From positions 65,789 through 129,788 of the forward strand of contig CAKPDH010000003.1 in assembly GCA_934148845.1 (NCBI GenBank): DNA of 64,000 nucleotides. Reading direction: 5' to 3'. This document shows positions 4,186 through 49,597 of this stretch, piece after piece. The translations under genes were made by a program, and so were the position numbers. The first letter of the stretch is position 1. Each line of letters opens with the position of its first letter. This DNA is from an uncultured Bacilli bacterium (lineage in GTDB: Bacteria > Bacillota_I > Bacilli_A > RF39 > UBA660). Under the pieces are notes generated by a model that saw only the letters and a program-made list of their open reading frames with translations, ran no database searches and was not told where the DNA came from.

Positions 4186-4263
4186 TACAATGTGCCAAAT
4201 TAAATTTGTATGGTATAATTTAATTGGCTTTAGTTGTTATACAACAAGGAAAGGAGAGTAAGC

Positions 4264-5844: not shown

Positions 5845-5924
5845 AACTTTGTCGCAACTTGCGACGAGGTGTACATAAAAAAATGATAAACTACTTATAC
5901 GAAGAAACTATTGGGGGTGATATT

Positions 5925-6677: not shown

Positions 6678-6697
6678 ATTTAGCAAGGAGGTAATCA

Positions 6698-7552: not shown

Positions 7553-7562
7553 GAGATATTAT

Positions 7563-17125: not shown

Positions 17126-19082
17126 AATTATCTTTATTTTTTCTAAACTTTTTTAATTGCTCTTCTATTTTTACTATCACATTAGAACTTTTATATATAT
17201 CAATTAGTTTACTTTTCTCAAGACTATCTTTGTAAAAATATTCTTCATTTACTAAATTAATTACTTGATGCGCTTCAAATTCGTTTAAATTTTCGTTGCA
17301 CAATAAATATTTAAATGCTAAATCAGCTGATTTTAAGTTGTCTTTATCCTTTTTATTATCTATATTTTTTATATATTTTTCATAATCACTTATTGCTTTA
17401 CATACTTTTATAGATAAATCTAGATCAAATTTTGTATCTATATTAATTTTTTCAATTTGACTATTAGGATTATTTTTCCAGTTACCCAAGTCTTTTTTAT
17501 TTATAATAGAAAAATATAATTTAATAAAATCTAATAAACTAATTATTTCTTCTTTATTATATAAATTAGTAATAGTAGAATGATAACTTTTTTTACCTGA
17601 TGAATATATTTCAAGGAAATACTTTCCTTTATTATATATTTCTTTTTGTATAAGTCTAATATAAGCATTTAATGATAACATATCAATTGATTTTACTTTA
17701 TATTGCTCATTTGAATATCTAGATATTTTACTTTTTATATTAAAATCAGTTTCATTTGTTATTTTTACAGGAAGTATTATTTTATCTAGATTTTTATTAT
17801 ATCTAATAAGTGTTGTTATTGTTTGTTGACCATTATTAATTACTGGATTTTTAATTAATATTCCAATACCAGTATCAATAACTTGACCAGTAATACTTAT
17901 ACCATTATTATATTTTATAAAATTTTCAGGTTCTATATCAATTGTTTTAATCATGTTTTTATTTGTATTTAATATGCCTCTAACATTATCATTAAAGTAT
18001 TTTGATATATCTATAGTAACATTATTATAACTATTTGGATTTACACCAAGAGCTTCTATTAAATATTTAATTAAATTATCTGCTTCTATATAAAAGCAAA
18101 AATTATTATTATTATCTTTAGATACATTGTACTGATAGATGTTATCAATTTTTATAGATGGTTTTATTATATTAAGTTCAATATTATTTTTGTCAATAGG
18201 TAGTAGTTTATTTTCAAAATATTTATTAAATATATAACTTGGTTTAATATTAGTATCATAATTTAAATTATTAGAAATACTACAAAAATGTATTTTTTTA
18301 TTTTTTAATGAATCTTTATGCTTTATTATATAATGATATAAATCTTTTCCATAATTTGGAATTTTACCCTTAATACACTGTTCATAATTAATTTTCATTA
18401 TATTAAAATCATCACTATTTATCTCATTAAGCTTTATTTGATATATAAATATTTCGTCATTATTAAAATATATAGCATCAATTTTTCCATCATAATCACC
18501 ATTTATGATATATTTATTAATACATTCTTCATATTCAATATTATAATATGTAGAAATTGCAAATACTTCAAAAGCGCTACCATATCCTTCATTTTTTTTA
18601 TTAATTGAAATTCTATCTAATAATCCTCTAATTATTTCTAGTTCATTTATTATTATTTTAGCTTTTCTTTTACCATATTCATATATTAATTTTCCTTTAA
18701 ATACATTATCTTGATTTTTTTCTAATTCATAAAATTCATTAATACAGTCTACACATTCAACACTATTCCATTCATCGTTAGTTATTAAATATTTATTATT
18801 TATATATCTTATGTACAATTTTTTATAATGCGTTATAGTCCATTTACCAGATCTAATTTTTTCTGTATGAAATAAATCATCTCCACAGAAACTAGTACAA
18901 TCTTTTGAATTTTCTTGAAGTCTTCCTCTTATTTTACTTTTTAGTATATTATTATTTTCAACTTCAAGAAAGCTTGCTACTTCATTATATATTTCTGGTA
19001 GAGTAGCGTACTCTTTATTTTCTCTCATAAGTATGTTATATATACAATCATAGATAATGTTTTTAAAACTTTTGTTGTTCAT
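17109..19082 (-). CDS. large hypothetical protein with ParB/DUF262-like NGQQT motif (candidate defence/abortive-infection protein)
   Basis: Residues ...IGILIKNPVINNGQQTITTLIRY resemble the (I)DGQQR-LTTL signature of DUF262/GmrSD-type ParB-like NTP-binding domains. 657 aa, and the remainder is unrecognised. Confidence 0.35.
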   Translation of the reverse strand: MNNKSFKNIIYDCIYNILMRENKEYATLPEIYNEVASFLEVENNNILKSKIRGRLQENSKDCTSFCGDDLFHTEKIRSGKWTITHYKKLYIRYINNKYLITNDEWNSVECVDCINEFYELEKNQDNVFKGKLIYEYGKRKAKIIINELEIIRGLLDRISINKKNEGYGSAFEVFAISTYYNIEYEECINKYIINGDYDGKIDAIYFNNDEIFIYQIKLNEINSDDFNIMKINYEQCIKGKIPNYGKDLYHYIIKHKDSLKNKKIHFCSISNNLNYDTNIKPSYIFNKYFENKLLPIDKNNIELNIIKPSIKIDNIYQYNVSKDNNNNFCFYIEADNLIKYLIEALGVNPNSYNNVTIDISKYFNDNVRGILNTNKNMIKTIDIEPENFIKYNNGISITGQVIDTGIGILIKNPVINNGQQTITTLIRYNKNLDKIILPVKITNETDFNIKSKISRYSNEQYKVKSIDMLSLNAYIRLIQKEIYNKGKYFLEIYSSGKKSYHSTITNLYNKEEIISLLDFIKLYFSIINKKDLGNWKNNPNSQIEKINIDTKFDLDLSIKVCKAISDYEKYIKNIDNKKDKDNLKSADLAFKYLLCNENLNEFEAHQVINLVNEEYFYKDSLEKSKLIDIYKSSNVIVKIEEQLKKFRKNKDNSKLCI

Positions 19083-32204: not shown

Positions 32205-32311
32205 GAATTCTAAAAAAATATAGAATTCTTTTTAATTTAATCAAAAAGTATTTAAATTAAATTAAATTTATTATATAATTAATATAAGTTTTAGAGTAGT
32301 ATGGAGGATTT

Positions 32312-35300
32312 ATGAAGAAAATTTTTATGATTATTGGCATATCAACAATTATAATATGTATGGTTATGATAAATGTTAGTAATGTAAATAGTGTCACAAC
32401 ATCAGACACATTTGAAGGAATAGGTTCATCGGGAGGTTCTCTTACTTCAAATCCTTGTGGCGAAAGTAGAACATGCATGAATCTTTTACCATATTTTGGA
32501 ATAAAGGTTACAATAGTTAAGAAAAATAATAATTCGCTTAAATCAATAACTAAACCTATTTATGTATGGAATAATGTTAATGAATCTAATGAATTAAATT
32601 ATGCTATAAAATTTATTGTTGAAAATAAATATGTATCTGACGATCCAGGAATTGCACAGTATCTTTATAAAGAATGTTACAACGCAAAAATAGTTGATAG
32701 TATCAAAGTAAGTAATTATATAAAAAAACACAGTATATCATCATCAGGACCTAATTATAATATTTTTAATTATAATGATACAAATTCAGATGATGAGAAA
32801 GCTCGAAATGTATCATCCTGGGATGAAATGAAATCCAAACTTTTAAATGGTAATTCGCATCTTCAAAGTCTTTTAAAAATTATAGCTGAAAATAAATTGT
32901 TTAATGATGGATATTCATTGGATTCTGTGGAAGGAATGTTAATTAAAATTGAACCAATAAATGTTTTTCAAGAAAAAAATGGTGAATCTTGTTTATTTTA
33001 TGTTGGTAGTATGGGAGATATTCATAGTGGCTACACTGGATCTGATTCAGTTCTTAACGATTTTTTTAGTCCAAAAGTAGGCTACTGGAGAGTTTATCAT
33101 AACAGAATAATTAGCTATTATGTTACGAATAGTGATTTTAATTCAATAGGTTATAATGGTATAACAGGATATGAGGGTGAAACAGGAATTGAAGACAATT
33201 ATTCAAAAGCAGTAGAAACATATAATAATAATGGTTATGCTAAAACAGGTCTAGGAGTTGCATATATAAAAATATCATCTCAGTACATACCAGGAAAACT
33301 TCAAATAAAGAAAATTGATGGTATTAATAATCCAATTGCTAATGTGCATTTTGATTTGTATAAAGGTCTTTGTACAGATGGTAAACTTATAAAACAAGAT
33401 ATAGTGACGTCAGGTGAAGGATTAGCTACTGTTGAAAATCTTGAGTCTGGTAAATATTGTATAAAAGAAACACAAGCTCCATATGGATATAAAAAGAGTG
33501 ATTTAGAAAAAATAGTGTATATAACTGCAGGCGAAACAAATAGCGTTGAGTTTAAAAATTTTAAATATCCAGCATTAAAAATCTATAAATATAAAGCTGG
33601 AACAAAGAAAGCTTTATCTGGTGCTGAATTTACGGTATATGCAGGTAATTGTGAAAATAAAGGTGCGAGAATAGACCGTGGTTCTACAAATGAAGATGGA
33701 TTTCTTCAATTTATGTTAAATAAGAGAGGAGCATACTGTGTTGAGGAAACACAAGCACCAAATAACTATATTAACAGCAATTCTTCAAAAAATGTTTATT
33801 TGAAATTTGGCGATGATATAACTTTAGAATTTGAAAATGAGTTAGACTGTAAAGGTGAATTTGAACAGGCAAAAGTTAATGGTGAGGTTTCAATGCAGGA
33901 TAGAATTAAAATATTTTGGGGAAAATATTCTATAGATGGTAAAGGTAGACGATATAATCAATTGTTAAATTTGACCAATAAAGATGCGACTTCTGCTTGT
34001 CAATATAAAAAACCAACGTACACACCCCAAATAACTTGCTTTAATTTTAAATATCCTTCAAATAGTGAATTTAATGCAAACAATCTTTCAAATTATAATG
34101 AACAATTTTTTAGTAATGATGGCTATATTAACTTTTGCTTAACTACTACGAATATATATACTGAAAAAAAATTACCTTCAGATAAAATAAAGGTAAAGGC
34201 CGGCATGATTGTTTTTGACGATAAACTTCAATTAAAGGTAGTTAAAACATGTTATAAATATCAATATGATAGTGCTTCTTCTGCTTCAAACTCAGGATTT
34301 AATTACACATTGAATGATGTATGGATTAACAAATATAGAACTTCATTTACTGAAAATATAATAAATAATGTTCGTATAAATAAATTAATTACTGATTATG
34401 AATATATTAATGAGGATAAAATAAATTATTTAAAAGATATACCTAACGGCTCAAAGTCTATAAGCGATAAAGATGAAAATAACAATTTAATTAAATCTGA
34501 AGATGATGGAAAAATAACTTATGAATATACGTATAAATATGAATATACTCCGATAAGTTTGTTGTATGGCTCTGGAAAGAATATTGCGAGTAAGGGTAAA
34601 TATTCAAACAATTTTAATGTACCGGGAATTATAAGTACATTTTCAGAGTCTGGATCTCAAATCATAAAATTTGGTGTGAAATATAAAGATTATACTGATA
34701 ATAAAGATATATACATAAATACAGAAGATGATGATGATAATTGCAAATATACTGTTGACCAAGCAATTATAACAGGATCTAATTTATTAAATCTACAGTT
34801 TGAACAAGTAAATTTAAAAAATCCATTTATAGAAAAAAATAATAATCCTACTACTGGTAATGTTACTATTAGAAAGGTAGGATCTAATTGGCGTTCAATT
34901 GATATTAATTCCTTTGATCTAAACGGTGATGGAGTTAGAAATGAAATAGATGAAGCAATAAAAAAATACGTTAATGATTTTATAAAGAATCCTTTAGCTA
35001 GTGAAAACGGAGATAACTATTTAGTTAAATATGTTATGAATGGTAGACCTAATAGTTATAGTAAGGATAAGCCTAAGTATGTAATAACGCTTACTCCATC
35101 TGATATTAAAGCTATTAGAAATTATAATGATTCTAATGATTATCAAGATTATGAAAAAGTTTATTGTACAGATTCTAATAATGTTTTGTGTTCAACGGAT
35201 TTCATTGATAATTTAAAAACTACTGATCCTAAGGTATGCGTAGGTGATACTTGTGAAAAGCTAAGCTCAGGTATTAATTTTAAAAGAGAAGTTACTGGTG

Positions 35301-36376
35301 GTAGTGATGTTAAAGATGCTTCATATATTAAGTTTTCTTTAAGTAATAGCGATTATGGTAAAATAGAAGGGGACATGAATATAGTTGTAAAAAAGGGAGA
35401 TAAGATAGAGTTTCCAGAGTTAAATATTAAGGAAGGTTATGGATTACTTGGTTGGATAACAAAAAATGAAAATAATAGATTTAACTACAATAATTATATA
35501 GATATATCAAATGTAACTGCTACTTTAGGTACTCAAGAGTATATGGCTGTACTTGCTAAAGAGCATAAAATATATAGAGAAACTGATGGTAATAATAGTT
35601 ATGTTTGTACGGTTTTGAGTAGAAAAAGTATGCAAGAAAGTGGTTGTCCAAGACTTGCTGACCCATCTAATGCATCTGGATTTGAAGGATGGAAATATAA
35701 TAATAGAGTTATAGATAATTATTATACGAGAAAATTTATTACTGATAATGATGATTTTATAATAACATTTACACCTAGTTATACACAAATTAAAATATAT
35801 GAAAGTATAGAGGTTGTAATGAATAATACAAAAATTAGATATTCTAAACGAGGTGTAGACATAGTAAGTAAGATTGATAAAATAATAGGAACATATTCTA
35901 TGAATGGTAAAATATTTAGTGAGCCAATAAATAAAAATCAATGTGAATATGATGGAGATGTTCACTCAACTAGATTAGGTAAAAATGCTTTTAGAGCAAG
36001 GTGCAAAAGAATATATTCTAAATATATAGACTATGAAATTGTAAAAGTTCCACTAGACTATATTGATACGAATAAAAATGCTTTAGGCGCTGGAATATTT
36101 ACTATATATACTAATTCAAATTATGAAAATGAAATTAGTGAGGCATATATAAAAGATAGTGAAAATAATACTCATAAATTTGAAAGGACTCATTTAGGCC
36201 TAAGAATAGACTTAAAAGAATTTGTGCCAGGAAAATATCCAGTTGGCGATTATTGGTTTGATTTAGTTTTTAAAGGAAAGAATGAAGACCTAATTACATG
36301 TAAGTTTAAAGTTACAAAGACTAAGCTAGGTTTAATTCCTAAAAGAGATGTAATTATATGTCCAGAATATCAATGA
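32312..36376 (+). CDS. giant secreted adhesin-like protein with two Cna-B-type domains
   Basis: Signal peptide. Tandem Cna-B motifs (SGKYCIKETQAPYGY, GAYCVEETQAPNNY). Same C-terminal shared modules (DLNGDGVRNEID, YLVKYVMNGRPNSY, LTPSDIKAIRNYND, CSTDFIDNL). 1354 aa. No LPXTG motif. Confidence 0.65.
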   Translation: MKKIFMIIGISTIIICMVMINVSNVNSVTTSDTFEGIGSSGGSLTSNPCGESRTCMNLLPYFGIKVTIVKKNNNSLKSITKPIYVWNNVNESNELNYAIKFIVENKYVSDDPGIAQYLYKECYNAKIVDSIKVSNYIKKHSISSSGPNYNIFNYNDTNSDDEKARNVSSWDEMKSKLLNGNSHLQSLLKIIAENKLFNDGYSLDSVEGMLIKIEPINVFQEKNGESCLFYVGSMGDIHSGYTGSDSVLNDFFSPKVGYWRVYHNRIISYYVTNSDFNSIGYNGITGYEGETGIEDNYSKAVETYNNNGYAKTGLGVAYIKISSQYIPGKLQIKKIDGINNPIANVHFDLYKGLCTDGKLIKQDIVTSGEGLATVENLESGKYCIKETQAPYGYKKSDLEKIVYITAGETNSVEFKNFKYPALKIYKYKAGTKKALSGAEFTVYAGNCENKGARIDRGSTNEDGFLQFMLNKRGAYCVEETQAPNNYINSNSSKNVYLKFGDDITLEFENELDCKGEFEQAKVNGEVSMQDRIKIFWGKYSIDGKGRRYNQLLNLTNKDATSACQYKKPTYTPQITCFNFKYPSNSEFNANNLSNYNEQFFSNDGYINFCLTTTNIYTEKKLPSDKIKVKAGMIVFDDKLQLKVVKTCYKYQYDSASSASNSGFNYTLNDVWINKYRTSFTENIINNVRINKLITDYEYINEDKINYLKDIPNGSKSISDKDENNNLIKSEDDGKITYEYTYKYEYTPISLLYGSGKNIASKGKYSNNFNVPGIISTFSESGSQIIKFGVKYKDYTDNKDIYINTEDDDDNCKYTVDQAIITGSNLLNLQFEQVNLKNPFIEKNNNPTTGNVTIRKVGSNWRSIDINSFDLNGDGVRNEIDEAIKKYVNDFIKNPLASENGDNYLVKYVMNGRPNSYSKDKPKYVITLTPSDIKAIRNYNDSNDYQDYEKVYCTDSNNVLCSTDFIDNLKTTDPKVCVGDTCEKLSSGINFKREVTGGSDVKDASYIKFSLSNSDYGKIEGDMNIVVKKGDKIEFPELNIKEGYGLLGWITKNENNRFNYNNYIDISNVTATLGTQEYMAVLAKEHKIYRETDGNNSYVCTVLSRKSMQESGCPRLADPSNASGFEGWKYNNRVIDNYYTRKFITDNDDFIITFTPSYTQIKIYESIEVVMNNTKIRYSKRGVDIVSKIDKIIGTYSMNGKIFSEPINKNQCEYDGDVHSTRLGKNAFRARCKRIYSKYIDYEIVKVPLDYIDTNKNALGAGIFTIYTNSNYENEISEAYIKDSENNTHKFERTHLGLRIDLKEFVPGKYPVGDYWFDLVFKGKNEDLITCKFKVTKTKLGLIPKRDVIICPEYQ

Positions 36377-39139: not shown

Positions 39140-40015
39140 ATGAATAATTTTGTTATAGGGTTAAAAAGATTTGTTACAAATAAAAATGTTGTTACTATTG
39201 TACTTGTTTTAGTAGCTCTTGGTTTATTATTTTGGGGGTATACTTCTACATTAAAGAAACAAACAAATCCAGTAAACTTACCAGTAGCGGCTACTACAAT
39301 AAGTGCTAGAACTAAATTAACTAATGAAAATATTAAATATGTTAAAGTTGCAAGTAGTATGATTAGTTCTAATGTTATTAGATCATCACAATCTTTAATT
39401 GATAAGTATGTAAATATTAATGTAACAGTTCCTGAGGGAAGCCCTTTTTATAAAGAATGGGTAGTAGAAGAAAAGGATGTTCCAGGTAACTGGGTTGAAC
39501 AATTAGATCGTAAAAAAGGTGAATTAGGTTACTATATGAGTGTTGATATGAACTCAACACTAGGAAATTCAGTATTACCTAATTCATATATAGATATATA
39601 CATGAAAGCTACTGATGAAAATGGTGTCATAATGTTTGGTAAACTTATGGAAAACATTAAAGTATTAGTAGTTCATGATGGTAGTGGAAAAAATGTATTT
39701 GATAATGTTAATTCTATTGGTACAGCATCAAAAATTGGATTTGCTGTAAGCCAAGATTTATATATATTATTAAAGAAAGCAAATTATCTTGGAATTGATC
39801 TTCAATTAGTGCCTCGTGGTAGTACAGTTCCAGATAATGATTATATTATTGTAAAAAGTTCTACATTAAGAGATTATATTGATGCACAAACAATTACAGT
39901 AGAAGAAGATTTAACTGCTGATGATATGAAGAACAATACTGATAATACAGAAAATAATACTGACAATAATACTAATACTAATACTAATACAAATAACGAA
40001 GCAAATAATCAGTAA
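39140..40015 (+). CDS. cpaB: Flp pilus assembly protein CpaB/RcpC-like
   Basis: N-terminal TM. SAF-like region (PVNLPVAATTISARTKLTNENIKYV). CpaB-type C-terminal region. Confidence 0.6.
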   Translation: MNNFVIGLKRFVTNKNVVTIVLVLVALGLLFWGYTSTLKKQTNPVNLPVAATTISARTKLTNENIKYVKVASSMISSNVIRSSQSLIDKYVNINVTVPEGSPFYKEWVVEEKDVPGNWVEQLDRKKGELGYYMSVDMNSTLGNSVLPNSYIDIYMKATDENGVIMFGKLMENIKVLVVHDGSGKNVFDNVNSIGTASKIGFAVSQDLYILLKKANYLGIDLQLVPRGSTVPDNDYIIVKSSTLRDYIDAQTITVEEDLTADDMKNNTDNTENNTDNNTNTNTNTNNEANNQ

Positions 40016-40043
40016 ATAAATAGAATAAAAAGGGTATGATAAT

Positions 40044-41228
40044 ATGCAGGATAGTATATTTGAAGGAATGGATTTTGGCCCTTTAACAGAATACTTGAAT
40101 AATGATGATATTACTGATATTTCGTATAGTAATAATGGACAAGTATGGTTAAAGACATTATCTAAGGGGATATTTAGAGTTGATAATCCGGCTATAAATA
40201 ATGCATTTATGGAAAAGCTTGCCTTTCAATGTTCAAATGTAATGGGTAAAAGTTTTAATGCAGCCCATCCGTTCCTAGACAGTGAAAGTGCGGAATTACG
40301 TATGAATTTTGTACATGATTCTATAGCAAAAAATGGTATAGCCTGCGTTATACGTAAAACCCCAGCAAAAATTAGACTTGAAAAGAAAAAAATATTAAAA
40401 GAAAAGTATGTAACTGAAGATATACTTGATATGTTAATAACTTGTGTTCATGGACATTGTAATATAATTGTTTGTGGAGAAACAGGTAGTGGTAAAACAG
40501 AATTTGTTAAATATCTTGCTTCAAATACATATGAAAATGAAAAAATAATAACAATAGAAGATACATTAGAGCTTCACTTAGACAAAATATATCCAAATAG
40601 AGATATTGTAGCTATGAAAACTAATAACATAGCAAGTTATTCTGATGTACTTGTAACTTGTATGAGACAAAATCCTAAATGGATTTTATTATCAGAAGTA
40701 CGTAGTGCAGAAGCTGTTATGGCTGTTAGAAACTCAATTTCATCAGGACATTATATTTTATCTACAATACACGCAGATAAGGCTTCTTCAATACCTAATC
40801 GTATGTATAGTTTACTTGAAACTAATCAGGATATAGAACAATTTTTAAAATCTATTTATAGATATATCCAAATTGGTGTATATATAAGAGGATATATGAG
40901 TAAAGAAGAAAAAAGATTTGTAAGAGAAATTGCAGAAGTTACTGAGTTTTATGTAACTGAAGATAATGAGGCTAAATATAATACTATTTATAAAAAAACT
41001 CCAGATGGAGTTGTGTATAGGAGAAATCCAAGCAAATACTTAATTGAATATCTAGAAGCTCAAGGAGTTAAACTACCTAATAATTTTATTAGGGAAGATT
41101 TACCAAATCCTGGTGATGAAGCTAAAAAAGAAAGCATGGATGACTATATGCGTGATATAAGTAGTAATCAAGTATTAGAAAAAAATACTACTAATAATAA
41201 AAAAAATGATGAAATTATATTTGGATAG
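40044..41228 (+). CDS. tadA: Tad/Flp secretion ATPase (TadA/CpaF; GspE/VirB11 superfamily)
   Basis: Walker A CGETGSGKT. Asp box ILLSEVR. His box STIHA. 394 aa, consistent with CpaF rather than VirB11. Flanked by CpaB-like and TadB/TadC-like genes. Confidence 0.85.
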   Translation: MQDSIFEGMDFGPLTEYLNNDDITDISYSNNGQVWLKTLSKGIFRVDNPAINNAFMEKLAFQCSNVMGKSFNAAHPFLDSESAELRMNFVHDSIAKNGIACVIRKTPAKIRLEKKKILKEKYVTEDILDMLITCVHGHCNIIVCGETGSGKTEFVKYLASNTYENEKIITIEDTLELHLDKIYPNRDIVAMKTNNIASYSDVLVTCMRQNPKWILLSEVRSAEAVMAVRNSISSGHYILSTIHADKASSIPNRMYSLLETNQDIEQFLKSIYRYIQIGVYIRGYMSKEEKRFVREIAEVTEFYVTEDNEAKYNTIYKKTPDGVVYRRNPSKYLIEYLEAQGVKLPNNFIREDLPNPGDEAKKESMDDYMRDISSNQVLEKNTTNNKKNDEIIFG

Positions 41229-41240
41229 GAGGTATAAATT

Positions 41241-42143
41241 ATGAATACTGTTTTACTTTTTGTAATTGTATCTGCAATACTTATATTTGTAATTATATAT
41301 AGAAGTAGTGCAGGAACTGAAACTTATGAGTTTGTAAAAACTCAAGGTAGAAGACTATATAGTAAAGTTTCTCCATATACTTATAAAGAAATAAAGAAGA
41401 AAATAAGAGAAATGAAACAGGATTATACTGTTCAACAATATATTTTACACATTGTTATATTTGCAATAGGCGCAGGAGGTATAACTTATTTGTACTTTTA
41501 TAGCATAATTATTTCAATAATATATGCTTTAATAGCAGTAGCGCTTGTACCTTATATTAACTATTTAAGATGTAAAAGAATATATAGTGAATTTATTTTT
41601 GAACAAATCCAAGTATATACTACTAATACCATTATGGAATTTGCAACTACTCAAAGCTTTGTAAAAGCTCTTGAGGGTGTTAATTCATCAGGAGTATTAG
41701 AAGATCCATTAAAACATGATGTTCAGGTAATGATTGATATGGCTTATGAAAATGGTACAATAAATCAATCACTTGAATATATGAATTCTAAATATGATTT
41801 TTATATGGTAAGAAACATGCATCAACTATTTTTACAAATTACTAATGAGGGTTCTAAAGATGCTAGTGATTCACTTGAAAATATGTCAAATGATATAGAT
41901 ACACTTGTTGAAGGAGTGTATAGGGATAGAATCGATAGGGAAGCATTTTATAAAAAATTTCTTAGATTTGGATTAATACTTTACTTAATGATAGGTGTAA
42001 TACAACTTATGTTAGGTGAAACATATCAAGTAATGCTTAAACTATGGTATGCTCAGCTTTTATTACATATTATCGTAATAGTAAATACATTTTTCTTAAT
42101 GTCTGGAACCAAATTTTATAATGAGAATGTAGGTGCCGAATGA
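41241..42143 (+). CDS. tadB: TadB-like membrane protein (GspF-domain)
   Basis: N-terminal TM, cytoplasmic helical domain and C-terminal TMs, in the typical position after the ATPase. Confidence 0.6.
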   Translation: MNTVLLFVIVSAILIFVIIYRSSAGTETYEFVKTQGRRLYSKVSPYTYKEIKKKIREMKQDYTVQQYILHIVIFAIGAGGITYLYFYSIIISIIYALIAVALVPYINYLRCKRIYSEFIFEQIQVYTTNTIMEFATTQSFVKALEGVNSSGVLEDPLKHDVQVMIDMAYENGTINQSLEYMNSKYDFYMVRNMHQLFLQITNEGSKDASDSLENMSNDIDTLVEGVYRDRIDREAFYKKFLRFGLILYLMIGVIQLMLGETYQVMLKLWYAQLLLHIIVIVNTFFLMSGTKFYNENVGAE

Positions 42144-42940
42144 GTATCTGGTTTTATGTACTTATCGCTGCAATTTTTATATTTGTAGTATGTTATAATA
42201 ATATTATTAATGTAAAAACTATAATAACTCAAGTAAATCCTATCTTACTTAAGTTTATGGAAAAAGACTATGAATTTTTATTAAGAGTAAAATATGGTGA
42301 AGCAGAATATGATATAAATTATTTATTTGGAATACGAATAAGAAATGGTATTATAACTAGTGCTGCTTTAATTCTTTTATTAATAGCAGCAGGCTATATG
42401 AGCTATATATTTGTTTTAGCATCATTAATTGCAGGCTTTCTGGCATTTAAAAGTAGTTATTTTACATTAAAAAATTATTACAAAGTAAGACTAAATTATA
42501 TAAGCTCTATGTTACCATATTTCTTGAAAAGCTTAGAAATATTAGTACAACATTATACAGTACCAGTAGCTTTATCAAGAAGTATTGATACCGCGCCAGA
42601 AATATTTAGACCAGGATTAAAACGTTTAGTAGCAAAAATAGACTCAGGTGATTCATCAATACAACCATATGTTGACTTTGCTAATGAATATCCTGTTAGA
42701 GATTCTATGAGAATGATGAGATTATTATATCGTTTAGGACTTGGTACTAATCAAGATAAACATGAGCAAATAATGATGTTTTCAAGAACAGTATCATCAC
42801 TTCAAAATAAAGCAAGAGAAATAAAATATAAAAATAGACTTGAATCTTTTGAAAAAAGAACAATGGTTATGTTATTTGTAACAGGTGGTGGAGTATTACT
42901 TGTATTATTCCTATCAATGACACTAATGATGCAAATATAA
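42140..42940 (+). CDS. tadC: TadC-like membrane protein (GspF-domain)
   Basis: Same topology class as tadB. Start overlaps the previous stop (ATGA coupling). Confidence 0.55.
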   Translation: MSIWFYVLIAAIFIFVVCYNNIINVKTIITQVNPILLKFMEKDYEFLLRVKYGEAEYDINYLFGIRIRNGIITSAALILLLIAAGYMSYIFVLASLIAGFLAFKSSYFTLKNYYKVRLNYISSMLPYFLKSLEILVQHYTVPVALSRSIDTAPEIFRPGLKRLVAKIDSGDSSIQPYVDFANEYPVRDSMRMMRLLYRLGLGTNQDKHEQIMMFSRTVSSLQNKAREIKYKNRLESFEKRTMVMLFVTGGGVLLVLFLSMTLMMQI

Positions 42941-43024
42941 TAAAAAAAACTAAAAAATGTTGAAAAATAAAACAAAAATATGATATACTAAAAGTGTAAT
43001 ATTATAAAGGTAGGTGATATATAA

Positions 43025-43276
43025 ATGAAAGAAGCAGCAGGAGAAGCTAACATGACAGTAATTACAATAGTATTAATAGCAATCGTACTTGCAGTTGGTA
43101 CACTTATTGTAAATACAATGATGAAAAATACAAAAAATAGTAGTGCTTGTTCAGCATGTGGCGGTTCTTGGAAGGGAGGTAAATGTATTGATCCTGATAA
43201 TAGTAATAATCTTATTGATTATACGTCTTGTTTATCAGGTGACCCTGCAAAACCAGCCCCAACACCAACACCTTAG
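43025..43276 (+). CDS. small TM protein, possible Flp-type pilin
   Basis: 83 aa with a short N-terminus, one hydrophobic helix, a Cys-rich middle and a Pro-rich tail. The canonical G/XXXXEY Flp motif is not evident. Confidence 0.3.
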   Translation: MKEAAGEANMTVITIVLIAIVLAVGTLIVNTMMKNTKNSSACSACGGSWKGGKCIDPDNSNNLIDYTSCLSGDPAKPAPTPTP

Positions 43277-43459
43277 TGTTGATGAAGTAAAAAAACTAAT
43301 GGGTAATGACCATAAGAGAGCTAATTTTTAGTTCTCTTTTATTATGGCTTATTTTTAAATGTTCTATATAATTAATTTTTTGTATAGAGTTATTTGGACT
43401 AAAAGTGATTGAATTTCTAAAATTTTTATGATATATTTAATATAGTAAGGAGGATAGAT

Positions 43460-44989
43460 ATGTTTAAGGTAAAAAGAGGTTTTTGGCTGTTTTTGTTTTT
43501 AATGTTTTTGCCTATATTGAATGTATATGCATTTTGTGTAGCTAAAGGTGATTTTGAGTATTGTTTTGATTCTGATGGTACTCAAGTTAGTGGGCCTAAG
43601 GGGGAACTTGATGATGTTATTTCATATGATGCACAAACTAATACTATAACTTTTAATAATTTTAGTGGTAAATATTTAGAAACTGCAGATAAAAGAAAGT
43701 TAAATTTAGTTTTTAAAGGAAGAAATTTATTTACTGAGTATATTAAAATAAGTGATGATTTAATAAATATTAGTGGTGATGGGGAATTAGTATTAGAAGT
43801 AAATGATGAAATTAATTCATTAATTGAGCTTTTTGGGTATCAAAATGAGTATGTTGGTAGTTATTCTACAATTAATATTAATGATATTAAAATAACTATA
43901 ACTGGTAATTTAAAGTATGATCAAGTAGGTATTGATGCAGTAGGGGATTTAAATTTTAAAAATACTAATATAAATATTTCTAATATAAATACTGGCGTTT
44001 TTTTTGGTGGAAGGTTTTTTGCAGATAATATTGGTTTAAATATATCAAATGTAGATACTGGCATGCTTATATCTGGTACAACTAAGTTAGATGATTCTAA
44101 TATAAATATTACTGATTTTAGTGAGTATGGTATGCATATTAGAACATCTACAATGGAGATGCAAGAGTTAGATATTACTAATAGTAATGTTTTTATAGAT
44201 GGAAAGTCTAAAGGTATAGGTGGATTATTATATGTAGGTGAAGAATTTAATCTTATAGATGGTTCATTTTTAATAAAAAATTGTAAGTATGGTATTTTTA
44301 GTAATGAAGCTGAGAATTTAGGCTTTATAAATATTAATGGTAAGTTAGATATTATAGATTCTCTTAGCGCAGCTATTTTACTAAGGGATGAGTCTAATTT
44401 TTCATATAATAAAAATAATATAGAGTTAAGTGGTGATTATGTACTTAGTGATTATATTGATTCTTTATATGGAGCTGGTTTTACTTATGCCAGTGAAAAA
44501 TTACCATATGGATATGATGATTTAGATGGAGAAATGGAAATTGAAATGACCGAGAGTGATTCGGCTAAGGTAGCTAAATCTATAAGCTTTTCTAAAAAGT
44601 ATAAAGAAAATAAATTGCTTGAGCAAAGTAAAAATGAATTAAAGGATAAAGATGATCTTACTTTGAGATTTGATTTAGATGTTTCAAAATTTTTATATTT
44701 GTATGTGGATGGTAAGTTATTAAGTAGAGAAAAAGGCGATTATACAGTTAAGTCTGGTAGTACGGTTGTTACTATTTCTAATAAATATTTGAGTACTATT
44801 AAGTCTGGGAATCATAATGTGAAAGCAGTATTTTCTGATGGTGTTGCAAGCGCTAATTTTAAAACTAATATAGAAAATCCAAATACAGGAATGAATGATG
44901 TAAATATTATTTTAATTATAATATTTACATTTAGTATACTATCTTATTTATTAATAAGAAGACGTAGTAAATTTCAAAAATCAGTGTAA
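43460..44989 (+). CDS. cell-wall-anchored surface protein with beta-helix-like repeats and NPNTG sortase-B sorting signal
   Basis: Signal peptide. Repetitive N(I/V)xxSN(I/V) parallel-beta-helix-like segments. The C-terminus carries NPNTG, then a hydrophobic helix, then RRRSKFQKSV, which is the class B sortase signal architecture. Confidence 0.6.
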   Translation: MFKVKRGFWLFLFLMFLPILNVYAFCVAKGDFEYCFDSDGTQVSGPKGELDDVISYDAQTNTITFNNFSGKYLETADKRKLNLVFKGRNLFTEYIKISDDLINISGDGELVLEVNDEINSLIELFGYQNEYVGSYSTININDIKITITGNLKYDQVGIDAVGDLNFKNTNINISNINTGVFFGGRFFADNIGLNISNVDTGMLISGTTKLDDSNINITDFSEYGMHIRTSTMEMQELDITNSNVFIDGKSKGIGGLLYVGEEFNLIDGSFLIKNCKYGIFSNEAENLGFININGKLDIIDSLSAAILLRDESNFSYNKNNIELSGDYVLSDYIDSLYGAGFTYASEKLPYGYDDLDGEMEIEMTESDSAKVAKSISFSKKYKENKLLEQSKNELKDKDDLTLRFDLDVSKFLYLYVDGKLLSREKGDYTVKSGSTVVTISNKYLSTIKSGNHNVKAVFSDGVASANFKTNIENPNTGMNDVNIILIIIFTFSILSYLLIRRRSKFQKSV

Positions 44990-45027
44990 AGCTTCAATAT
45001 TTTGAAGCTTTTCTAATAGGTGGTAAA

Positions 45028-46602
45028 ATGAGTAATAAGATTAAAATTATAGTAAAGAATAATGATATTATATTTTCTTTATATAATAGAAATATAAATG
45101 ATGAAAATTTAAATAATACTAATATAATTGATATAAAAAACTTAAAGTTTACATCTGAATATATAAGTAATAATTTAGATTTAATGTCTTCTTTTTTAAA
45201 TTTAATTGTATTAAAAAATAATATAACTAAATTAGTTATAACTGATTTAGAAGTAGCGCCTATAATAATTAAATTATCTTATAATATAAATATTCATAGA
45301 TTAATTTTTACTCAAGATATTGAGTTAAATTATACTATATCAGATGCTTTACTTAAAAATAGTAATTTAACTTATATAGAGTGTTATAGTATGCCTAAAG
45401 TTATGTTTAATAGATTTAATTCTTCTATTGTTGAAACGAGATGTAAAGTACCGTTTACAAGCAATTTTATGAAATATAATAATATTAATACTTATTCTAA
45501 GCTATGTAATATAGATAGAATAATAATTGATAGTTATTTAACTAAGAATGACTTAGATGATATTATTTATTTTTTTAGTGTAAATAGAAGTGTTAAAAGA
45601 ATTATAATAAAAGGATATAAAAGGAATAATTTAATAGTTTTTTTACAAATGATTGATAAATATAAATTAAAACATATTAAAATTATATTAGTTGAAGATT
45701 CCCTCGTTTTAAAAGATCTTACTAATGATATGGAACTTTTTACTAAATTAAGTAAAAAATATAATGTAAGTATTAAAATTAAGTATTCGGATTCTTATAA
45801 GAATAAAAACAAATTTAAAGAATTATGTATTATAATAATTAAATTAACTTTACTATTATTAATTTTGGTAGTGATTATTTTAATGCTATTTAAAAAAAAT
45901 ACGATAAAAAATGATAATAAGGGAATTGAAGATAATTTGAAAATAATAGATGAAGTAGTAAGTGATAATTCTAATATAAGTGATAATACGAATTCTTCAA
46001 GTTCTAATTTATATACTAGTCCCTATTATACTAAGTATGATAATGTGTATTCTAAATTGAAAGAAATAAATAACGATACTGTTGGATGGATTAAAGTTAA
46101 AAATACTAAAGTAGATTATCCTGTCGTACAAGGTAGTGATAATGAGTATTATCTAGATCATGCTTTTAATAAAACTAAAAATGGCGCAGGATGGATATTT
46201 GCTGATTATAGAAATAATTTAGATAGTTTAGATGATTTAGATGATAATACTATTATATATGGTCATGATATACAAAAGAATTTTCTTATGTTTGGTTCAC
46301 TTGAATTTTTACTAACTGATGCTTGGAATAGTGATTTAAATAATTTAGATATAACTTTTAATATAAGAGGTAATGATGTTATATTTAAGATATTTTCAGT
46401 GTATACAATTGATAAAACTAGTGATTATTTAGTAACTAATTTTTTAAATAAAGAAGATTATAAAAAATTTATTTTAATGATAAAAAATAGGAGTATTAAA
46501 GATTTTAATGTAGATATAGATGTATACTCTAAAATACTCACATTATCAACTTGTTATAAGACTGATTCAAAAAGATTAGTAGTGCATGCAAAAAAAATGT
46601 AA
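45028..46602 (+). CDS. srtB: class B sortase with ~270-aa N-terminal cytoplasmic extension
   Basis: C-terminal catalytic domain GWIKVKNTKVDYPVVQGSDNEYYLDH...GWIFADYRN...YGHD...LTLSTCY matches SrtB. A single TM lies at ~aa 270-290. The N-terminal domain is Leu/Ile-rich with LRR-like periodicity. Confidence 0.8.
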   Translation: MSNKIKIIVKNNDIIFSLYNRNINDENLNNTNIIDIKNLKFTSEYISNNLDLMSSFLNLIVLKNNITKLVITDLEVAPIIIKLSYNINIHRLIFTQDIELNYTISDALLKNSNLTYIECYSMPKVMFNRFNSSIVETRCKVPFTSNFMKYNNINTYSKLCNIDRIIIDSYLTKNDLDDIIYFFSVNRSVKRIIIKGYKRNNLIVFLQMIDKYKLKHIKIILVEDSLVLKDLTNDMELFTKLSKKYNVSIKIKYSDSYKNKNKFKELCIIIIKLTLLLLILVVIILMLFKKNTIKNDNKGIEDNLKIIDEVVSDNSNISDNTNSSSSNLYTSPYYTKYDNVYSKLKEINNDTVGWIKVKNTKVDYPVVQGSDNEYYLDHAFNKTKNGAGWIFADYRNNLDSLDDLDDNTIIYGHDIQKNFLMFGSLEFLLTDAWNSDLNNLDITFNIRGNDVIFKIFSVYTIDKTSDYLVTNFLNKEDYKKFILMIKNRSIKDFNVDIDVYSKILTLSTCYKTDSKRLVVHAKKM

Positions 46603-46687
46603 TTGTTACATTTTTTTAAATATACGATGATTGACATTTTTAATAGTTATGATATACTTATAATAGTAAAAGTAGGTGATTATACAT

Positions 46688-47188
46688 ATGCATGAGAGTC
46701 TTGGATATTCGGTAATTTTTAATATAGTAATTGTATTTGTTGTAATTATTTTTGTATTTATAGGATCTGTTTTAGTTTATTTTAAAAGTAATAAAGTAAG
46801 TAATGTTATAGCTGATTCAATTGAAAAATATTCTGGATATAATAAGTTATCTATAGAAGAAATAAATAAAAACATGAGTAATCTTGGATATAATAAAATG
46901 AAAATTAAGTGTGAAAACTTGAGTGAAGATGATAAATGTAAAGTAGAGGAAGGTAATCAATTACTTAATGATGGCTCAGATGGATATTGTGTATATTTTT
47001 GTCAGACTACAAAAGAAGTAGAAAAACAAAATGAAAGTGGAAATATAGTTAAGACTAAAGTATACTATTATTATTATAAAATTAAAACAAATATGATGTT
47101 TAAAATACCAATAATAAATGATATATTACCACTTCCTATATGGTCAACAACTAATGTTATGTATGATTTTGATGAAAATTTAAAATAG
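46688..47188 (+). CDS. TadE-like/pseudopilin-like protein (paralog of 47206)
   Basis: MHESLG|YSVIFNIVIVFVV... is a prepilin-like N-terminus. It shares ...SIEKYSGY/IEENGGY and (L)GY(N/L)K motifs with the next ORF. RBS AGGTGA. Confidence 0.4.
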   Translation: MHESLGYSVIFNIVIVFVVIIFVFIGSVLVYFKSNKVSNVIADSIEKYSGYNKLSIEEINKNMSNLGYNKMKIKCENLSEDDKCKVEEGNQLLNDGSDGYCVYFCQTTKEVEKQNESGNIVKTKVYYYYYKIKTNMMFKIPIINDILPLPIWSTTNVMYDFDENLK

Positions 47189-47205
47189 TAAAGTAAGGTG
47201 ATTTT

Positions 47206-47646
47206 ATGAAAGCATCAATAGGCGGAAGTATGCTTTTATATATAGTTTTGTTTTTTGTTTCTGTTGTAATTTTGTTTTTTGTAGGCATAATAGCTTATAA
47301 TAAAGCTTATAGAGTTAAAAATAGAATTGTAAATATAATAGAAGAAAATGGTGGATATACAGATGATCTTAAGGCTACAATAGATGGTGAACTTAAAAAA
47401 TATGGTTATTTGACTACAAAGGTTAGTGTAGATTGTAAGAAGGCATCATCACATAGTAATTCTACTTGTGAAAATCTACCTGCTGGTCAATATAAGTATT
47501 GTATATGTCATACTACTCATAATAGTGGTACAGTTTATGAAGTAATAACTTATACACAGTTTGATATACCACTTATAGGTGGTATATTATCAAACGCAGT
47601 ACATGGTGAGACTAAAACTTTAAGCGTAAATTACGATTATAGATAG
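47206..47646 (+). CDS. TadE-like/pseudopilin-like protein
   Basis: MKASIGG|SMLLYIVLFFVSVV... leader ends in GG and a hydrophobic helix follows. Paralogous to the previous ORF. Confidence 0.4.
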   Translation: MKASIGGSMLLYIVLFFVSVVILFFVGIIAYNKAYRVKNRIVNIIEENGGYTDDLKATIDGELKKYGYLTTKVSVDCKKASSHSNSTCENLPAGQYKYCICHTTHNSGTVYEVITYTQFDIPLIGGILSNAVHGETKTLSVNYDYR

Positions 47647-47662
47647 AATAGAGGGAAATTTC

Positions 47663-48661
47663 ATGAATGTAATTATATCAAATAAAAATCAAGCGTTGCT
47701 AGAAAATTTAGGTATAGATGTAATTAAAGAGATGAATGGCGAGTTTGAGGTAGACGAAATAATAGCAACTTTTCAAAATTTTTTTTATCAAAGAATGATT
47801 TTGGATATAACGGCTATTAAAAATTACTTGGATATTAGGAATTTACAAAAACTTTCAATTTCTTTAAATATGGAAAAAGTAATATTGCTTTTGGATGGAA
47901 CTGATGCAACAAGCAATCCTACATTTTTATCTAATTTAGTATCAATGGGAATATATAATTTTACTAAAAATGTAGAAGGTATTCAGTATCTTTATAATAC
48001 TCCAAATACTTATCGTGATGTAGCACAGTTTCATAACTTGACACAACAAACTACTCAAAGTAATCAACAACAAAGTGTTATGTCTGGTATAAATAATAAA
48101 AATAATCCTATAGCTAATTCTATTTCAGTAGAAGAAAGTGGTGCGACTAGAGTAATAGGTGTAAAAAACTTAACTAAACAATCTGGTGCGACAAGTTTAG
48201 TGTATATGATTAGAAATGTGCTTAAATCTAGATATAAAGTAATTGCTATAGAAGCTGATAAAACTGATTTTACATATTTTAATGATAATACGTTACTTTC
48301 TGTTCCAACATCTGATATTGGAACTGTTATAAAGAGAAATAGCGATATGGATGTTATTGTGATAGATATTAATAATAGTGTGGTAGCTGAAGGCTTTTGT
48401 CAAGATGTTCTATATCTAATAGAACCTTCAATAATAAAATTACAAAAATTAATGGCACTTAATGCAGTAGCGCTTCAAGGCCTAAAAAATAAAAAAGTTG
48501 TATTAAATCAAAGCTTGTTATCAAATCGTGATGTTGCAAATTTTGAATATGAGGCGAGAGTAAATGTATTTTATAATCTTCCTCCCCTTAATGAAAGAGT
48601 AAAAGAACAACCAGATTTAGCTGCTTTATTAGTAAAATTAGGTTTTAATAAGTTAAGATAA
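47663..48661 (+). CDS. TadZ/CpaE-like protein (receiver-like N-domain + ParA/MinD-like domain with degenerate P-loop)
   Basis: RVIGVKNLTKQSGATSLVYMIRNVL...KVIAIEADKT aligns to the VIAV.S.KGGVGKTT...VLLVDLD pattern of CpaE/TadZ, but the Walker A is degenerate. Confidence 0.45.
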   Translation: MNVIISNKNQALLENLGIDVIKEMNGEFEVDEIIATFQNFFYQRMILDITAIKNYLDIRNLQKLSISLNMEKVILLLDGTDATSNPTFLSNLVSMGIYNFTKNVEGIQYLYNTPNTYRDVAQFHNLTQQTTQSNQQQSVMSGINNKNNPIANSISVEESGATRVIGVKNLTKQSGATSLVYMIRNVLKSRYKVIAIEADKTDFTYFNDNTLLSVPTSDIGTVIKRNSDMDVIVIDINNSVVAEGFCQDVLYLIEPSIIKLQKLMALNAVALQGLKNKKVVLNQSLLSNRDVANFEYEARVNVFYNLPPLNERVKEQPDLAALLVKLGFNKLR

Positions 48662-48663
48662 TA

Positions 48664-49161
48664 TTGACAATAAAGTCTTTAAACCGTATAATAATTGATA
48701 GATGGGTGATAAAATTGAAAATTAAATTGGCATACAGACTTATGTTTATATTTGTTATATCATTTATGTTAAGTACAAGCGTATTTGCAGAGTGTAAACC
48801 AGGAGATATTAACTGTTACAATAATTATCCTACTGACACACTTGTAAGCTGTGGTGATGGTATGATTAAAGAAATCCCACCTTTAATACCTAAAGTAACA
48901 AGTATAGTTTATACGACTTTTCAAATATTGGTTCCAATATTATTAGTTGTATTTAGTATGTTTGATTTAGTAAAAGCAATTTCTGCACAAAAAGAAGATG
49001 ATATAAAGAAGGGTCAAAAACAACTTATTAGAAGAATAATTGCAGGTGTTATTGTGTTCTTTGTATTTGTAATTGTAAAATTTGCTATAAGCATTTTAGC
49101 CGATAATAGTGCTGGCATTATTGACTGTGCGGATTGTTTTATAAGAAATAATTGTAAGTAG
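48664..49161 (+). CDS. VirB2/TrbC-like two-TM protein, paralog 1 (signal peptide, KEDDIKKGQKQ loop, C-terminal CxDC)
   Basis: Likely true start at TTG ~48712 (MKIKLAYRLMFIFVISFMLSTSVFA|E). Hydrophobic helix VPILLVVFSMFDL, conserved loop, second helix, C-terminus CADCF..NNCK. Confidence 0.4.
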   Translation: MTIKSLNRIIIDRWVIKLKIKLAYRLMFIFVISFMLSTSVFAECKPGDINCYNNYPTDTLVSCGDGMIKEIPPLIPKVTSIVYTTFQILVPILLVVFSMFDLVKAISAQKEDDIKKGQKQLIRRIIAGVIVFFVFVIVKFAISILADNSAGIIDCADCFIRNNCK

Positions 49162-49177
49162 ATTAAGGAGGATAAAG

Positions 49178-49597
49178 ATGAAAAAGAAATATTTAGTATT
49201 GTTTATAGTTATTGGAGCTTTGTTTTTTATGGCTCAACCAGTTTTAGCAGAAAATATAACAGCATGTGATGCATCTATTAAAGGAGCTGTAATTGATGAA
49301 AAAATACCTAATACTGTAAGCACAATAATTACAATAATTAAAATTGTAGTTCCAATTTTGCTAGTTGTGTTTGGTATGATGGATTTAGTTAAAGGAATTA
49401 TATCACAAAAAGAAGATGAAATTAAAAAAGGGCAACAAATATTTATTAAACGTTTAATAGCTGGAGCACTTGTGTTTTTTGTTTTCATAATCGTACAACT
49501 TATTATAAGCTTAGTAGCAGATGGCCAAAATGAAAATAAAAATATAATGACTTGTGTAAATTGTTTTATTAACAATAAAGGATGTAAAGGGAACTAA
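49178..49597 (+). CDS. VirB2/TrbC-like two-TM protein, paralog 2
   Basis: Signal peptide ...PVLA|EN. VPILLVVFGMMDL, KEDEIKKGQQ, second helix, C-terminus CVNCF..KGCKGN. RBS AAGGAGG. Confidence 0.4.
   Translation: MKKKYLVLFIVIGALFFMAQPVLAENITACDASIKGAVIDEKIPNTVSTIITIIKIVVPILLVVFGMMDLVKGIISQKEDEIKKGQQIFIKRLIAGALVFFVFIIVQLIISLVADGQNENKNIMTCVNCFINNKGCKGN

Follow-up and report, generated by a model that had tools for sequence, protein, structure and literature searches.

A 64,000-nucleotide (nt) stretch of DNA from an uncultured Bacilli bacterium (contig CAKPDH010000003.1, positions 65,789 to 129,788; "the window") contains two adjacent open reading frames (ORFs) that encode an NPNTG-bearing surface protein (ORF A) and a class B sortase (ORF B). 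Sortases are usually seen as minimal enzymes, consisting of a membrane anchor and an extracellular catalytic domain. In ORF B, the anchor is preceded by 268 residues, referred to here as the N-domain, that are predicted to form a cytoplasmic domain. The N-domain is unmodeled in Pfam and NCBIfam, and the sortases that carry it form a conserved family in uncultured gut Bacilli of low GC content. We consider it probable that ORF A and ORF B form a two-gene surface-display cassette that belongs to this lineage's SrtB family and was captured by a conjugative element, with the N-domain serving as an interaction module. How sortases locate their substrates and their site in the cell is only partly understood, and a defined N-domain with neighboring substrates provides a handle on localization and substrate selection.

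A conserved N-terminal domain fused to a class B sortase

ORF B is a single uninterrupted frame, with no in-frame stop codon in the 268 residues that precede its transmembrane segment. Several lines of evidence bear out an earlier reading of this DNA, made from the sequence alone ("the sequence-only reading"), which had called ORF B a class B sortase. First, the Pfam Sortase model matches residues 355–523 (E = 1.2e-10), and the class B sortase model TIGR03064 matches residues 271–519 with 154.7 bits, ~1 bit above its cutoff of 153.75. Second, the motifs GWIFADYRN (residues 388–396), IIYGHD (409–414) and TLSTC (505–509) are present. His413, Cys509 and Arg516 are each kept in 94–98% of 51 homologues and fall in aligned conserved blocks common to Clostridioides difficile SrtB (5gyj). 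Third, all 15 PDB sequence matches of ORF B are SrtB-family proteins, the best being 5gyj (5e-29), followed by the SrtBs of C. perfringens, B. anthracis and S. aureus (5e-29 to 2e-25). The solved chains among these matches comprise only 183–254 amino acids (aa), against which the N-terminal extension of ORF B is unusually long, as the same reading had noted. The closest 120 relatives listed for the catalytic domain are 156–380 aa long, those checked on long contigs being ~240–340 aa, and the ORF B catalytic domain is ~50–60% identical to the listed relatives, including the ordinary-length SrtBs on long contigs. Mean column conservation is 0.60 in the catalytic domain and 0.28 in the linker that separates it from the membrane (residues 289–339).

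The N-domain was used to search 1.84 billion representative proteins, clustered at 50% identity, with a HMMER profile built from three sequences. The profile matched 189 clusters at E ≤ 1e-3, 126 of them at E ≤ 1e-10. In all 56 members of at least 460 aa, the N-domain match starts at or near residue 1; TL[ST]TC is found near the C-terminus in 49 of these 56, and a simple pattern places a transmembrane segment at residues ~246–294 in 43. Members below this length are apparently fragments, derived from short contigs, and none of the family members found has the N-domain in any other architecture. The N-domain is conserved at the protein level down to ~26–30% identity, always in frame with the sortase; Met1 of ORF B is 92% conserved, and the exact ORF B protein occurs on 20 independent contigs. 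A separate, word-indexed protein search with the N-domain returned two fragments and failed to return the query's own cluster, so absences in that search mean little.

The sequence-only reading had itself raised the concern that the N-terminal region might be a separate ORF, joined to the sortase by a misread frame. That explanation fails because the fusion is conserved across the family, with the same single ORF recurring in 55 genome loci as well as across the 189 clusters. The domain search that it had proposed for residues 1–270 found no match for residues 1–268 among Pfam, NCBIfam and PADLOC models, and 17 family members were likewise unmatched in Pfam. In the simplest history, a conventional SrtB acquired this N-terminal extension. 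Searches of open-access papers turned up no sortase described as having a large cytoplasmic domain.

Topology and predicted fold of the N-domain

No signal peptide is present in the N-domain. Immediately ahead of the transmembrane segment, 15 residues sum to a net charge of +2 to +5 in almost every one of ~55 homologues; the first 15 residues on its far side are approximately neutral or negative. The positive-inside rule therefore predicts a cytoplasmic N-domain, as does the need for the catalytic domain to lie outside the membrane, where it can reach its substrate. This charge pattern agrees with the earlier proposal of a cytoplasmic extension followed by a single transmembrane segment.

An AlphaFold2 (AF2) model of the N-domain, computed from three sequences, has a mean pLDDT of 83.8 and a pTM of 0.75. 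It consists of an N-terminal beta-hairpin followed by ~9–10 beta-strand/helix units of 19–30 residues. The sequence-only reading had described this region as resembling leucine-rich repeats (LRRs), a description that we treat as a lead, still unproven. In a Foldseek search against the PDB there was no match at E ≤ 1e-3. The best matches were LRRs of the ribonuclease inhibitor (RI) type, namely SKP2 (2e-3, TM-score 0.24), then NLRP3, NLRP14, NLRC4 and CARMIL, which resemble the model in their alternating short strand/helix units of 23–30 residues. They differ from it in other respects: the structural matches are weak, LRR hidden Markov models (HMMs) from Pfam were unmatched in 17 members even at E ≤ 5, none from NCBIfam matched, and segment-against-segment comparison with hhalign gave no significant internal repeats (probability ≤ 11%). 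The family profile matched nothing significantly among PDB sequences; LRR proteins appeared at E values of 0.4–1.8, including ZYG11B (0.43) and ribonuclease inhibitor (1.7). Units of the form "Nxx[LIV]xx[LIV]x[LIVC]" are conserved at only two places, near residues 111 and 186, with a count per protein barely above that in shuffled sequences. We therefore prefer the name beta/alpha-repeat domain.

Conserved positions in the N-domain are mostly Asn, aromatic or aliphatic residues (F147, N151, N186, I192, Y253, Y257 and C119), and an LNNTN(I/V)I motif is conserved in a loop modeled with low confidence. The homologue alignment contains no invariant acid/base residue. This pattern of conservation argues for a binding or scaffold role rather than an enzymatic one; enzyme families in Pfam and NCBIfam gave no match. 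A protein–protein interaction module is the most likely function.

ORF A, the presumed substrate

ORF A and ORF B are adjacent genes on the + strand, exactly where the sequence-only reading had placed them, and each is preceded by a Shine-Dalgarno sequence. By layout, ORF A is a cell-wall sorting-signal protein, with a signal peptide, a sorting motif, a hydrophobic segment and a basic tail all present (Table 1); the motif, membrane-spanning segment and charged tail that had been reported for the upstream gene were recovered on re-reading. ORF A scores 17.0 bits against TIGR01167 (LPXTG_anchor), whose cutoff is 15.9. It is the sole protein in the 64-kb window that matches a sorting-signal pattern, and direct inspection of the C-termini of eight larger ORFs in the window revealed no sorting signals. 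A metagenome contig of 109 kb carries a copy that is 99% identical to ORF A.

The AF2 model of ORF A has a mean pLDDT of 60.6, the better-supported parts being an all-beta region (residues ~140–320) and an immunoglobulin (Ig)-like stalk. The all-beta region is built from short consecutive strands, with block pLDDT values mostly of 71–93 and two blocks of ~60. The earlier description of ORF A as a beta-helix protein was a guess at the fold, plausible but unproven: the Pfam scan matched no beta-helix family, and Foldseek gave no significant solenoid match in the PDB (a tailspike ranks 30th, with probability 0.14). The stalk is the only part of ORF A with recognizable PDB matches, which are to Ig domains and to the X2 domains of GH5 cellulases (Foldseek). 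Many other NPxTG proteins near N-extended sortases share this Ig/X2-like stalk, including the conserved block DYTVKSGST.

In one further copy of the cassette (L063, positions 1–1536), a small deletion or frameshift after ~90 codons of the substrate gene leaves a 308-aa ORF, next to a sortase that is 100% identical to ORF B. This gene is either pseudogenized or the result of an assembly error.

Distribution of N-extended sortases

A scan of 185,579 species genomes with the three-sequence N-domain alignment identified 55 loci, nearly all of them in metagenome-assembled genomes labeled uncultured Bacilli, Firmicutes CAG:582, Tenericutes or Mollicutes. The source samples are human, rabbit, goat and sheep guts, and all loci have a GC content of 20–38%. 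Six loci (L016, L020, L024, L042, L050 and L058) come from bins labeled Muribaculaceae or Phocaeicola vulgatus; they have 22–37% GC and a Firmicute-type sortase, and the contigs are probably mis-binned. The hosts have peptidoglycan, as indicated by gene content: a Mur ligase and the D-Ala-D-Ala ligase Ddl adjoin the cassette in L004 (Pfam), SpoIIP adjoins the sortase in nine loci, and the element in the window encodes a hydrolase with M23 and lysozyme domains. Field et al. (2024; PMC10868615) reported srtA/B to be missing from RFN20 and ML615J-28, in contrast to RF39; on this basis, the N-extended SrtB family may belong to RF39-type lineages.

The genes for N-extended SrtBs are mostly chromosomal. 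Neighbors confirmed with Pfam in a synteny comparison include ThrRS, ProRS, PolC, SpoIIP and LemA, and rpsL-rpsG-fusA-tuf (L009) and enolase (L004) were recognized by eye. About 50 of the 55 loci have no type IV secretion system (T4SS) or Tad genes within 10 kb. The cassette lies among Tad-like/T4SS genes only in the element found in the window (L001 and L059–L064, 98–100% identical) and in the related L008, where it occupies another position in the same Tad-like cluster, between homologues of the 517-aa and 216-aa proteins. In L049, CpaB/TadA-like genes lie ~9 kb from the sortase. The N-domain thus characterizes the sortases of this lineage and has no particular tie to DNA transfer. The sequence-only reading had proposed a dedicated anchoring step inside a Tad/T4SS array. 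The position of the cassette between a Tad-like module and a T4SS stands; its dedication to that array is not supported, given that the family is lineage-wide and mostly chromosomal.

Proteins with NP[NDKETQ]TG motifs adjoin the sortase in ~20 of the 55 loci, so the NPxTG pairing that had been proposed for the window, with ORF A as a substrate carrying a SrtB-type sorting signal, recurs in the family. In the window's own clade (L004–L009 and L053), the NPxTG gene is on the same strand, 17–52 nt upstream of the sortase gene; it is divergently upstream in seven loci and ~1.6 kb away in four. The ectodomains are varied. Most have no Pfam match, two have Listeria-Bacteroides repeats, and one homologue of ORF A has an LRR_4 domain.

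The cytoplasmic tails of the NPxTG neighbors have a pattern that is unusual for sorting signals. In all ~20, a basic cluster is followed by F or Y and then by one to six residues; examples are KFPQA, KFPK, KFQKSV, KKYI, FKQF and RIYDNL, with KFPQA and KFPK in the cassettes nearest to that of ORF A. The tails are 6–12 residues long. Among the VPxTG proteins that are paired with a short sortase, ~11 of 16 tails have no aromatic residue (e.g., RNGKKC).

These VPxTG proteins belong to a different gene set, found at positions 10658–14104 of L014 and in 15 other loci. It comprises a conserved protein of ~260–290 aa with no family match, an ordinary sortase of 225 aa, and a SpaA-domain protein of ~600 aa with a VPKTG...KKC end. 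The set sits downstream of the chromosomal N-extended SrtB gene, on the opposite strand. The 225-aa sortase and the VPKTG protein are presumably a second, separate sortase-substrate pair.

Proposed mechanism and alternatives

In the mechanism that we favor, Sec would export ORF A, which would stay in the membrane through its C-terminal transmembrane segment and basic tail. Outside the cell membrane, the SrtB domain of ORF B, with its triad Cys509/His413/Arg516, would then cleave the motif (NPNT/G) and transfer ORF A to the peptidoglycan cross-bridge. Cleavage and anchoring are the established mechanism of class B sortases, which the sequence features of ORF A and ORF B suggest they share. The N-domain would be a non-enzymatic, cytoplasmic protein–protein interaction module, either positioning the sortase at a site of secretion or wall synthesis, or capturing the substrate by its short cytoplasmic tail. 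In the first case, the partner would have to be a host protein, since a T4SS is absent from the surroundings of most family members. The cassette would be ancestrally chromosomal, taken up into the integrative conjugative element. Three observations argue for such a capture: the closest relatives of the cassette lie among housekeeping genes, its position differs in L008, and its catalytic domain is ~50–60% identical to ordinary SrtBs. A terminator-like hairpin and a promoter-like site flank the cassette (Table 1), which also suggests an inserted unit. Once anchored, ORF A may act as an adhesin on the surface of the donor cell; a role in mating is reasonable by analogy with the plasmid systems described below. 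The role suggested in the sequence-only reading, that of a pilus-tip or mating adhesin, is a hypothesis, and the Pfam scan of ORF A showed no pilin-type (SpaA) domain.

Several observations weigh against parts of this scheme. Within 10 kb of the sortase, ~35 of the 55 loci showed no NPxTG protein, and 16 loci instead have, nearby, a VPKTG protein along with a separate small sortase; adjacency to an NPxTG gene is therefore not universal. The tail pattern represents ~6 independent lineages, follows the sortase phylogeny, and could reflect proteomes that are rich in F and Y. The population represented by L063 has a disrupted substrate gene beside an intact sortase gene. The structural matches of the N-domain to RI-type LRRs have TM-scores of 0.22–0.25 and root-mean-square deviations >10 Å, and several TIM-barrel enzymes reach similar TM-scores. 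ORF B exceeds the TIGR03064 cutoff narrowly, and position is what links ORF A and ORF B to conjugation.

One alternative holds that the N-domain recognizes the cytoplasmic tail of the substrate, so that both sides of the membrane would contribute to substrate selection, through NPxTG outside and the basic-aromatic tail inside. We regard this as a tentative idea. It would account for the basic cluster and F/Y shared by all ~20 NPxTG tails and missing its aromatic residue in ~11 of 16 VPxTG tails, and repeat-type beta/alpha domains are commonly peptide binders. Tail types track the sortase phylogeny, however, as shared descent alone would predict, and there are only ~6 independent types, in tails of 6–12 residues, drawn from low-GC proteomes in which F and Y are common. 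In a broader and equally speculative version, the sortase would be two-sided, with the N-domain either reading the basic-aromatic tail motif or docking on a cytoplasmic secretion or wall-synthesis factor, such that anchoring is gated from inside the cell. To our knowledge, neither substrate selection gated from the inside nor spatial control of this kind has been described for any sortase. More generally, the conservation of a large, folded, presumably cytoplasmic domain implies that, for at least one gut Bacilli lineage, anchoring is tied in some way to the cell interior.

A second alternative, which we consider unlikely, makes the cassette a component dedicated to the conjugation/Tad machinery. 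The N-domain would then dock the sortase on cytoplasmic components of the T4SS/Tad system, and the adhesin would be anchored at the mating channel. The cassette does sit in the middle of the transfer operon, between TadB/C-like and T4SS genes, and L008 also embeds it in a Tad-like cluster, at another position; moreover, there is precedent for a plasmid-encoded sortase that aids transfer, namely SrtD of pCW3 (cited in PMC8225981). Set against this, the ~50 loci that lack T4SS/Tad genes within 10 kb place the sortase among housekeeping genes, which implies that the partner exists in element-free cells, and the cassette is bracketed by a terminator-like and a promoter-like site, in the manner of an inserted unit.

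The third alternative, that the sortase polymerizes ORF A into a pilus or fiber, as some streptococcal class B enzymes do, instead of simply anchoring it to the wall, is very improbable. Pilus-assembling enzymes of the S. pyogenes 3psq type are among the PDB matches, and the operon has a SpaA-domain protein. The 3psq-type match, however, is the weakest (2e-13, vs. 5e-29 for anchoring SrtBs), ORF A has no match to SpaA or pilin-type domains in Pfam, and there is a single substrate gene. We rejected this reading because the operon's SpaA-domain protein has no sorting signal.

Lastly, typical SrtBs of ~215–255 aa and the long chance ORFs of AT-rich genomes might suggest that ORF B is an annotation or assembly artifact, or that its true start is internal and the real protein an ordinary short SrtB, but a frame error or artifactual fusion is ruled out by the conservation of the N-domain described above, and an internal start has next to no probability given the conserved Met1, the good ribosome-binding site (RBS) at 45028, the confident AF2 fold and the identical protein on 20 independent contigs.

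Comparison with known systems

Like the class B sortases of S. aureus (SrtB/NPQTN), B. anthracis (SrtB/NPKTG) and C. difficile (SrtB/(S,P)PxTG), ORF B has the homologous catalytic domain with its triad and TLSTC motif, a single-pass anchor with the N-terminus inside, and an NPxTG-type signal in the adjacent gene. The substrates of ORF B-type sortases, like those in C. difficile, do not appear to be heme-uptake proteins, with no NEAT domain found by Pfam. Unlike the known SrtBs, which have few cytoplasmic residues, ORF B has a folded domain of ~270 aa before its anchor. It also differs in having a low-complexity linker of ~50 aa between the transmembrane segment and the catalytic domain, and in the absence of isd/heme genes nearby.

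Wall-anchored proteins and sortases are associated with T4SS genes in other elements. PrgB, encoded with the T4SS genes of pCF10 and anchored by the host SrtA, aids mating (PMC12857230), as does SrtD, a sortase encoded with the T4SS genes of pCW3 (PMC8225981, citing Revitt-Mills 2021). In comparison, the sortase in the window is class B with a cytoplasmic domain, the signal is NPNTG rather than LPxTG, ORF A has no adhesin-type Pfam domains of this sort (only a sub-threshold CBM_X2 match), and the cassette also exists without a T4SS in related genomes.

The "Hodor" conjugative megaplasmids of gut Bacillota (bioRxiv 10.64898/2026.02.21.707213), in the passages of the preprint available to us, carry their own class B sortase and predicted sortase-anchored surface proteins. 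They have 44–47% GC and exceed 200 kb, their srtB lies beside genes for SecYEG and trigger factor, and they encode giant proteins of >7,300 aa; the window has ~25% GC and other genes. Those passages describe no N-terminal domain on the Hodor sortase. As the source, the Hodor megaplasmids, as far as these passages describe them, were rejected on GC content and gene content. A blastn search of a plasmid database with positions 43000–47700 returned zero matches.

Conjugative elements that carry class B sortases are thus already known; what sets this one apart is a conserved, unmodeled and presumably cytoplasmic domain on a bona fide SrtB. This architecture will be surprising to sortase specialists and is experimentally tractable, while the link to conjugation is weaker than it first appeared. 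The N-domain adds a family of 189 clusters, without a model, to the annotation gap of uncultured gut Bacilli with reduced genomes. The substrate-plus-sortase cassettes of these bacteria also appear to transfer to conjugative elements, possibly serving there as adhesins for mating or colonization.

Features of the gene pair and local DNA signals

Table 1. Features of the ORF A/ORF B gene pair and its flanks (coordinates are positions in the window).
Feature	Coordinates	Strand	Residues	Basis
Terminator-like hairpin, 3' of the small 83-aa gene and 5' of the cassette	43314..43338	+		11-bp stem, then T-run
ORF A, NPNTG surface protein	43460..44989	+	509 aa	ORF call, TIGR01167, sorting-signal pattern
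Signal peptide of ORF A, MFKVKRGFWLFLFLMFLPILNVYA	43460..43531	+	1–24	Basic n-region, hydrophobic core, VYA before predicted cleavage point
All-beta repetitive region of ORF A, possible beta-solenoid	43868..44419	+	~137–320	AF2 model
Ig-like/CBM_X2-like stalk of ORF A	44612..44869	+	~385–470	Pfam CBM_X2, 27.8 bits (below cutoff of 28.9)
NPNTG sorting motif of ORF A	44876..44890	+	473–477	P474 and T476 invariant in homologue alignment
C-terminal membrane-spanning segment of ORF A, 19 residues	44900..44956	+	481–499	Hydrophobic stretch
Basic cytoplasmic tail of ORF A, RRRSKFQKSV	44957..44986	+	500–509	Sequence
Intercistronic hairpin, ORF A stop to ORF B RBS	44988..45011	+		10-bp perfect stem, -12 kcal/mol, z -3.16 vs. 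shuffles
ORF B, class B sortase with N-terminal cytoplasmic domain (predicted)	45028..46602	+	524 aa	ORF call, Pfam, TIGR03064, family profile
N-domain of ORF B, beta/alpha-repeat, predicted cytoplasmic	45028..45831	+	1–268	Family profile, AF2, charge pattern
Single transmembrane segment of ORF B	45826..45891	+	~267–288	Hydrophobic pattern, charge pattern
Asn/Ser-rich extracellular linker of ORF B	45892..46044	+	289–339	Sequence; poorly conserved
SrtB catalytic domain of ORF B	46045..46599	+	340–524	His413 46264–46266, Cys509 46552–46554, Arg516 46573–46575
Promoter-like site past the sortase stop, TTGACA-16-TATACT with TG	46631..46658	+		11/12 match

Three terminator-like sites were found in the region, with 0.4 expected. 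The hairpin between ORF A and ORF B may act as an attenuator or stabilize the mRNA, and so set the ratio of substrate to sortase expression. Promoter-like sites as a class show no enrichment over shuffled sequence in this AT-rich DNA, such that the site downstream of the sortase gene is weak evidence.

The surrounding element

The cassette lies between a Tad-like module and a T4SS that includes VirB4, VirD4, VirB6/TrbL-like and PrgI/VirB3-like proteins and the M23/lysozyme hydrolase. The transfer operon (29.6–62.7 kb) also encodes a VirB11/TadA-like ATPase, a CpaB-like protein and T4SS_pilin-like proteins, and looks like part of an integrative conjugative element. Chromosomal genes, including those for iPGM, a tRNA methyltransferase and an epimerase, occupy 9–29 kb of the window, and a serine recombinase gene is located at 4234–5844.

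The Tad-like module (39140–43338) encodes a CpaB-like protein (TIGR03177, E = 1.4e-6, below cutoff), a VirB11/TrbB/TadA-like T2SSE ATPase, two polytopic membrane proteins without family matches, and a Cys-rich, single-transmembrane protein of 83 aa (43025–43276). According to a recent T4SS review, pili are not encoded by Gram-positive conjugation systems (PMC12857230), which would make a pilus-like module here noteworthy. At the head of the transfer operon (29655–36376) are genes for two large secreted proteins, one of 849 aa and one of 1354 aa, the latter with SpaA/prealbumin-like domains. Both proteins lack a cell-wall sorting signal and a C-terminal transmembrane segment, and they are therefore not substrates of the adjacent sortase. 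Downstream of the cassette, at 48664–49597, are tandem paralogues of 165 and 139 aa with a weak match to PF18895 (T4SS_pilin) and conserved Cys pairs; an antisense ORF of 113 aa in this region (49234–49575) is probably spurious.

Among the chromosomal genes, a protein of 657 aa from the AIPR (abortive-infection phage-resistance) family is encoded at 17109–19082 on the - strand. The region 4234–8504 encodes the large serine recombinase (Resolvase, Recombinase and Zn-ribbon domains), then a BRO-N domain protein and unannotated ORFs; this region may encode the integration functions of the element, or it may be a mobile element of its own.

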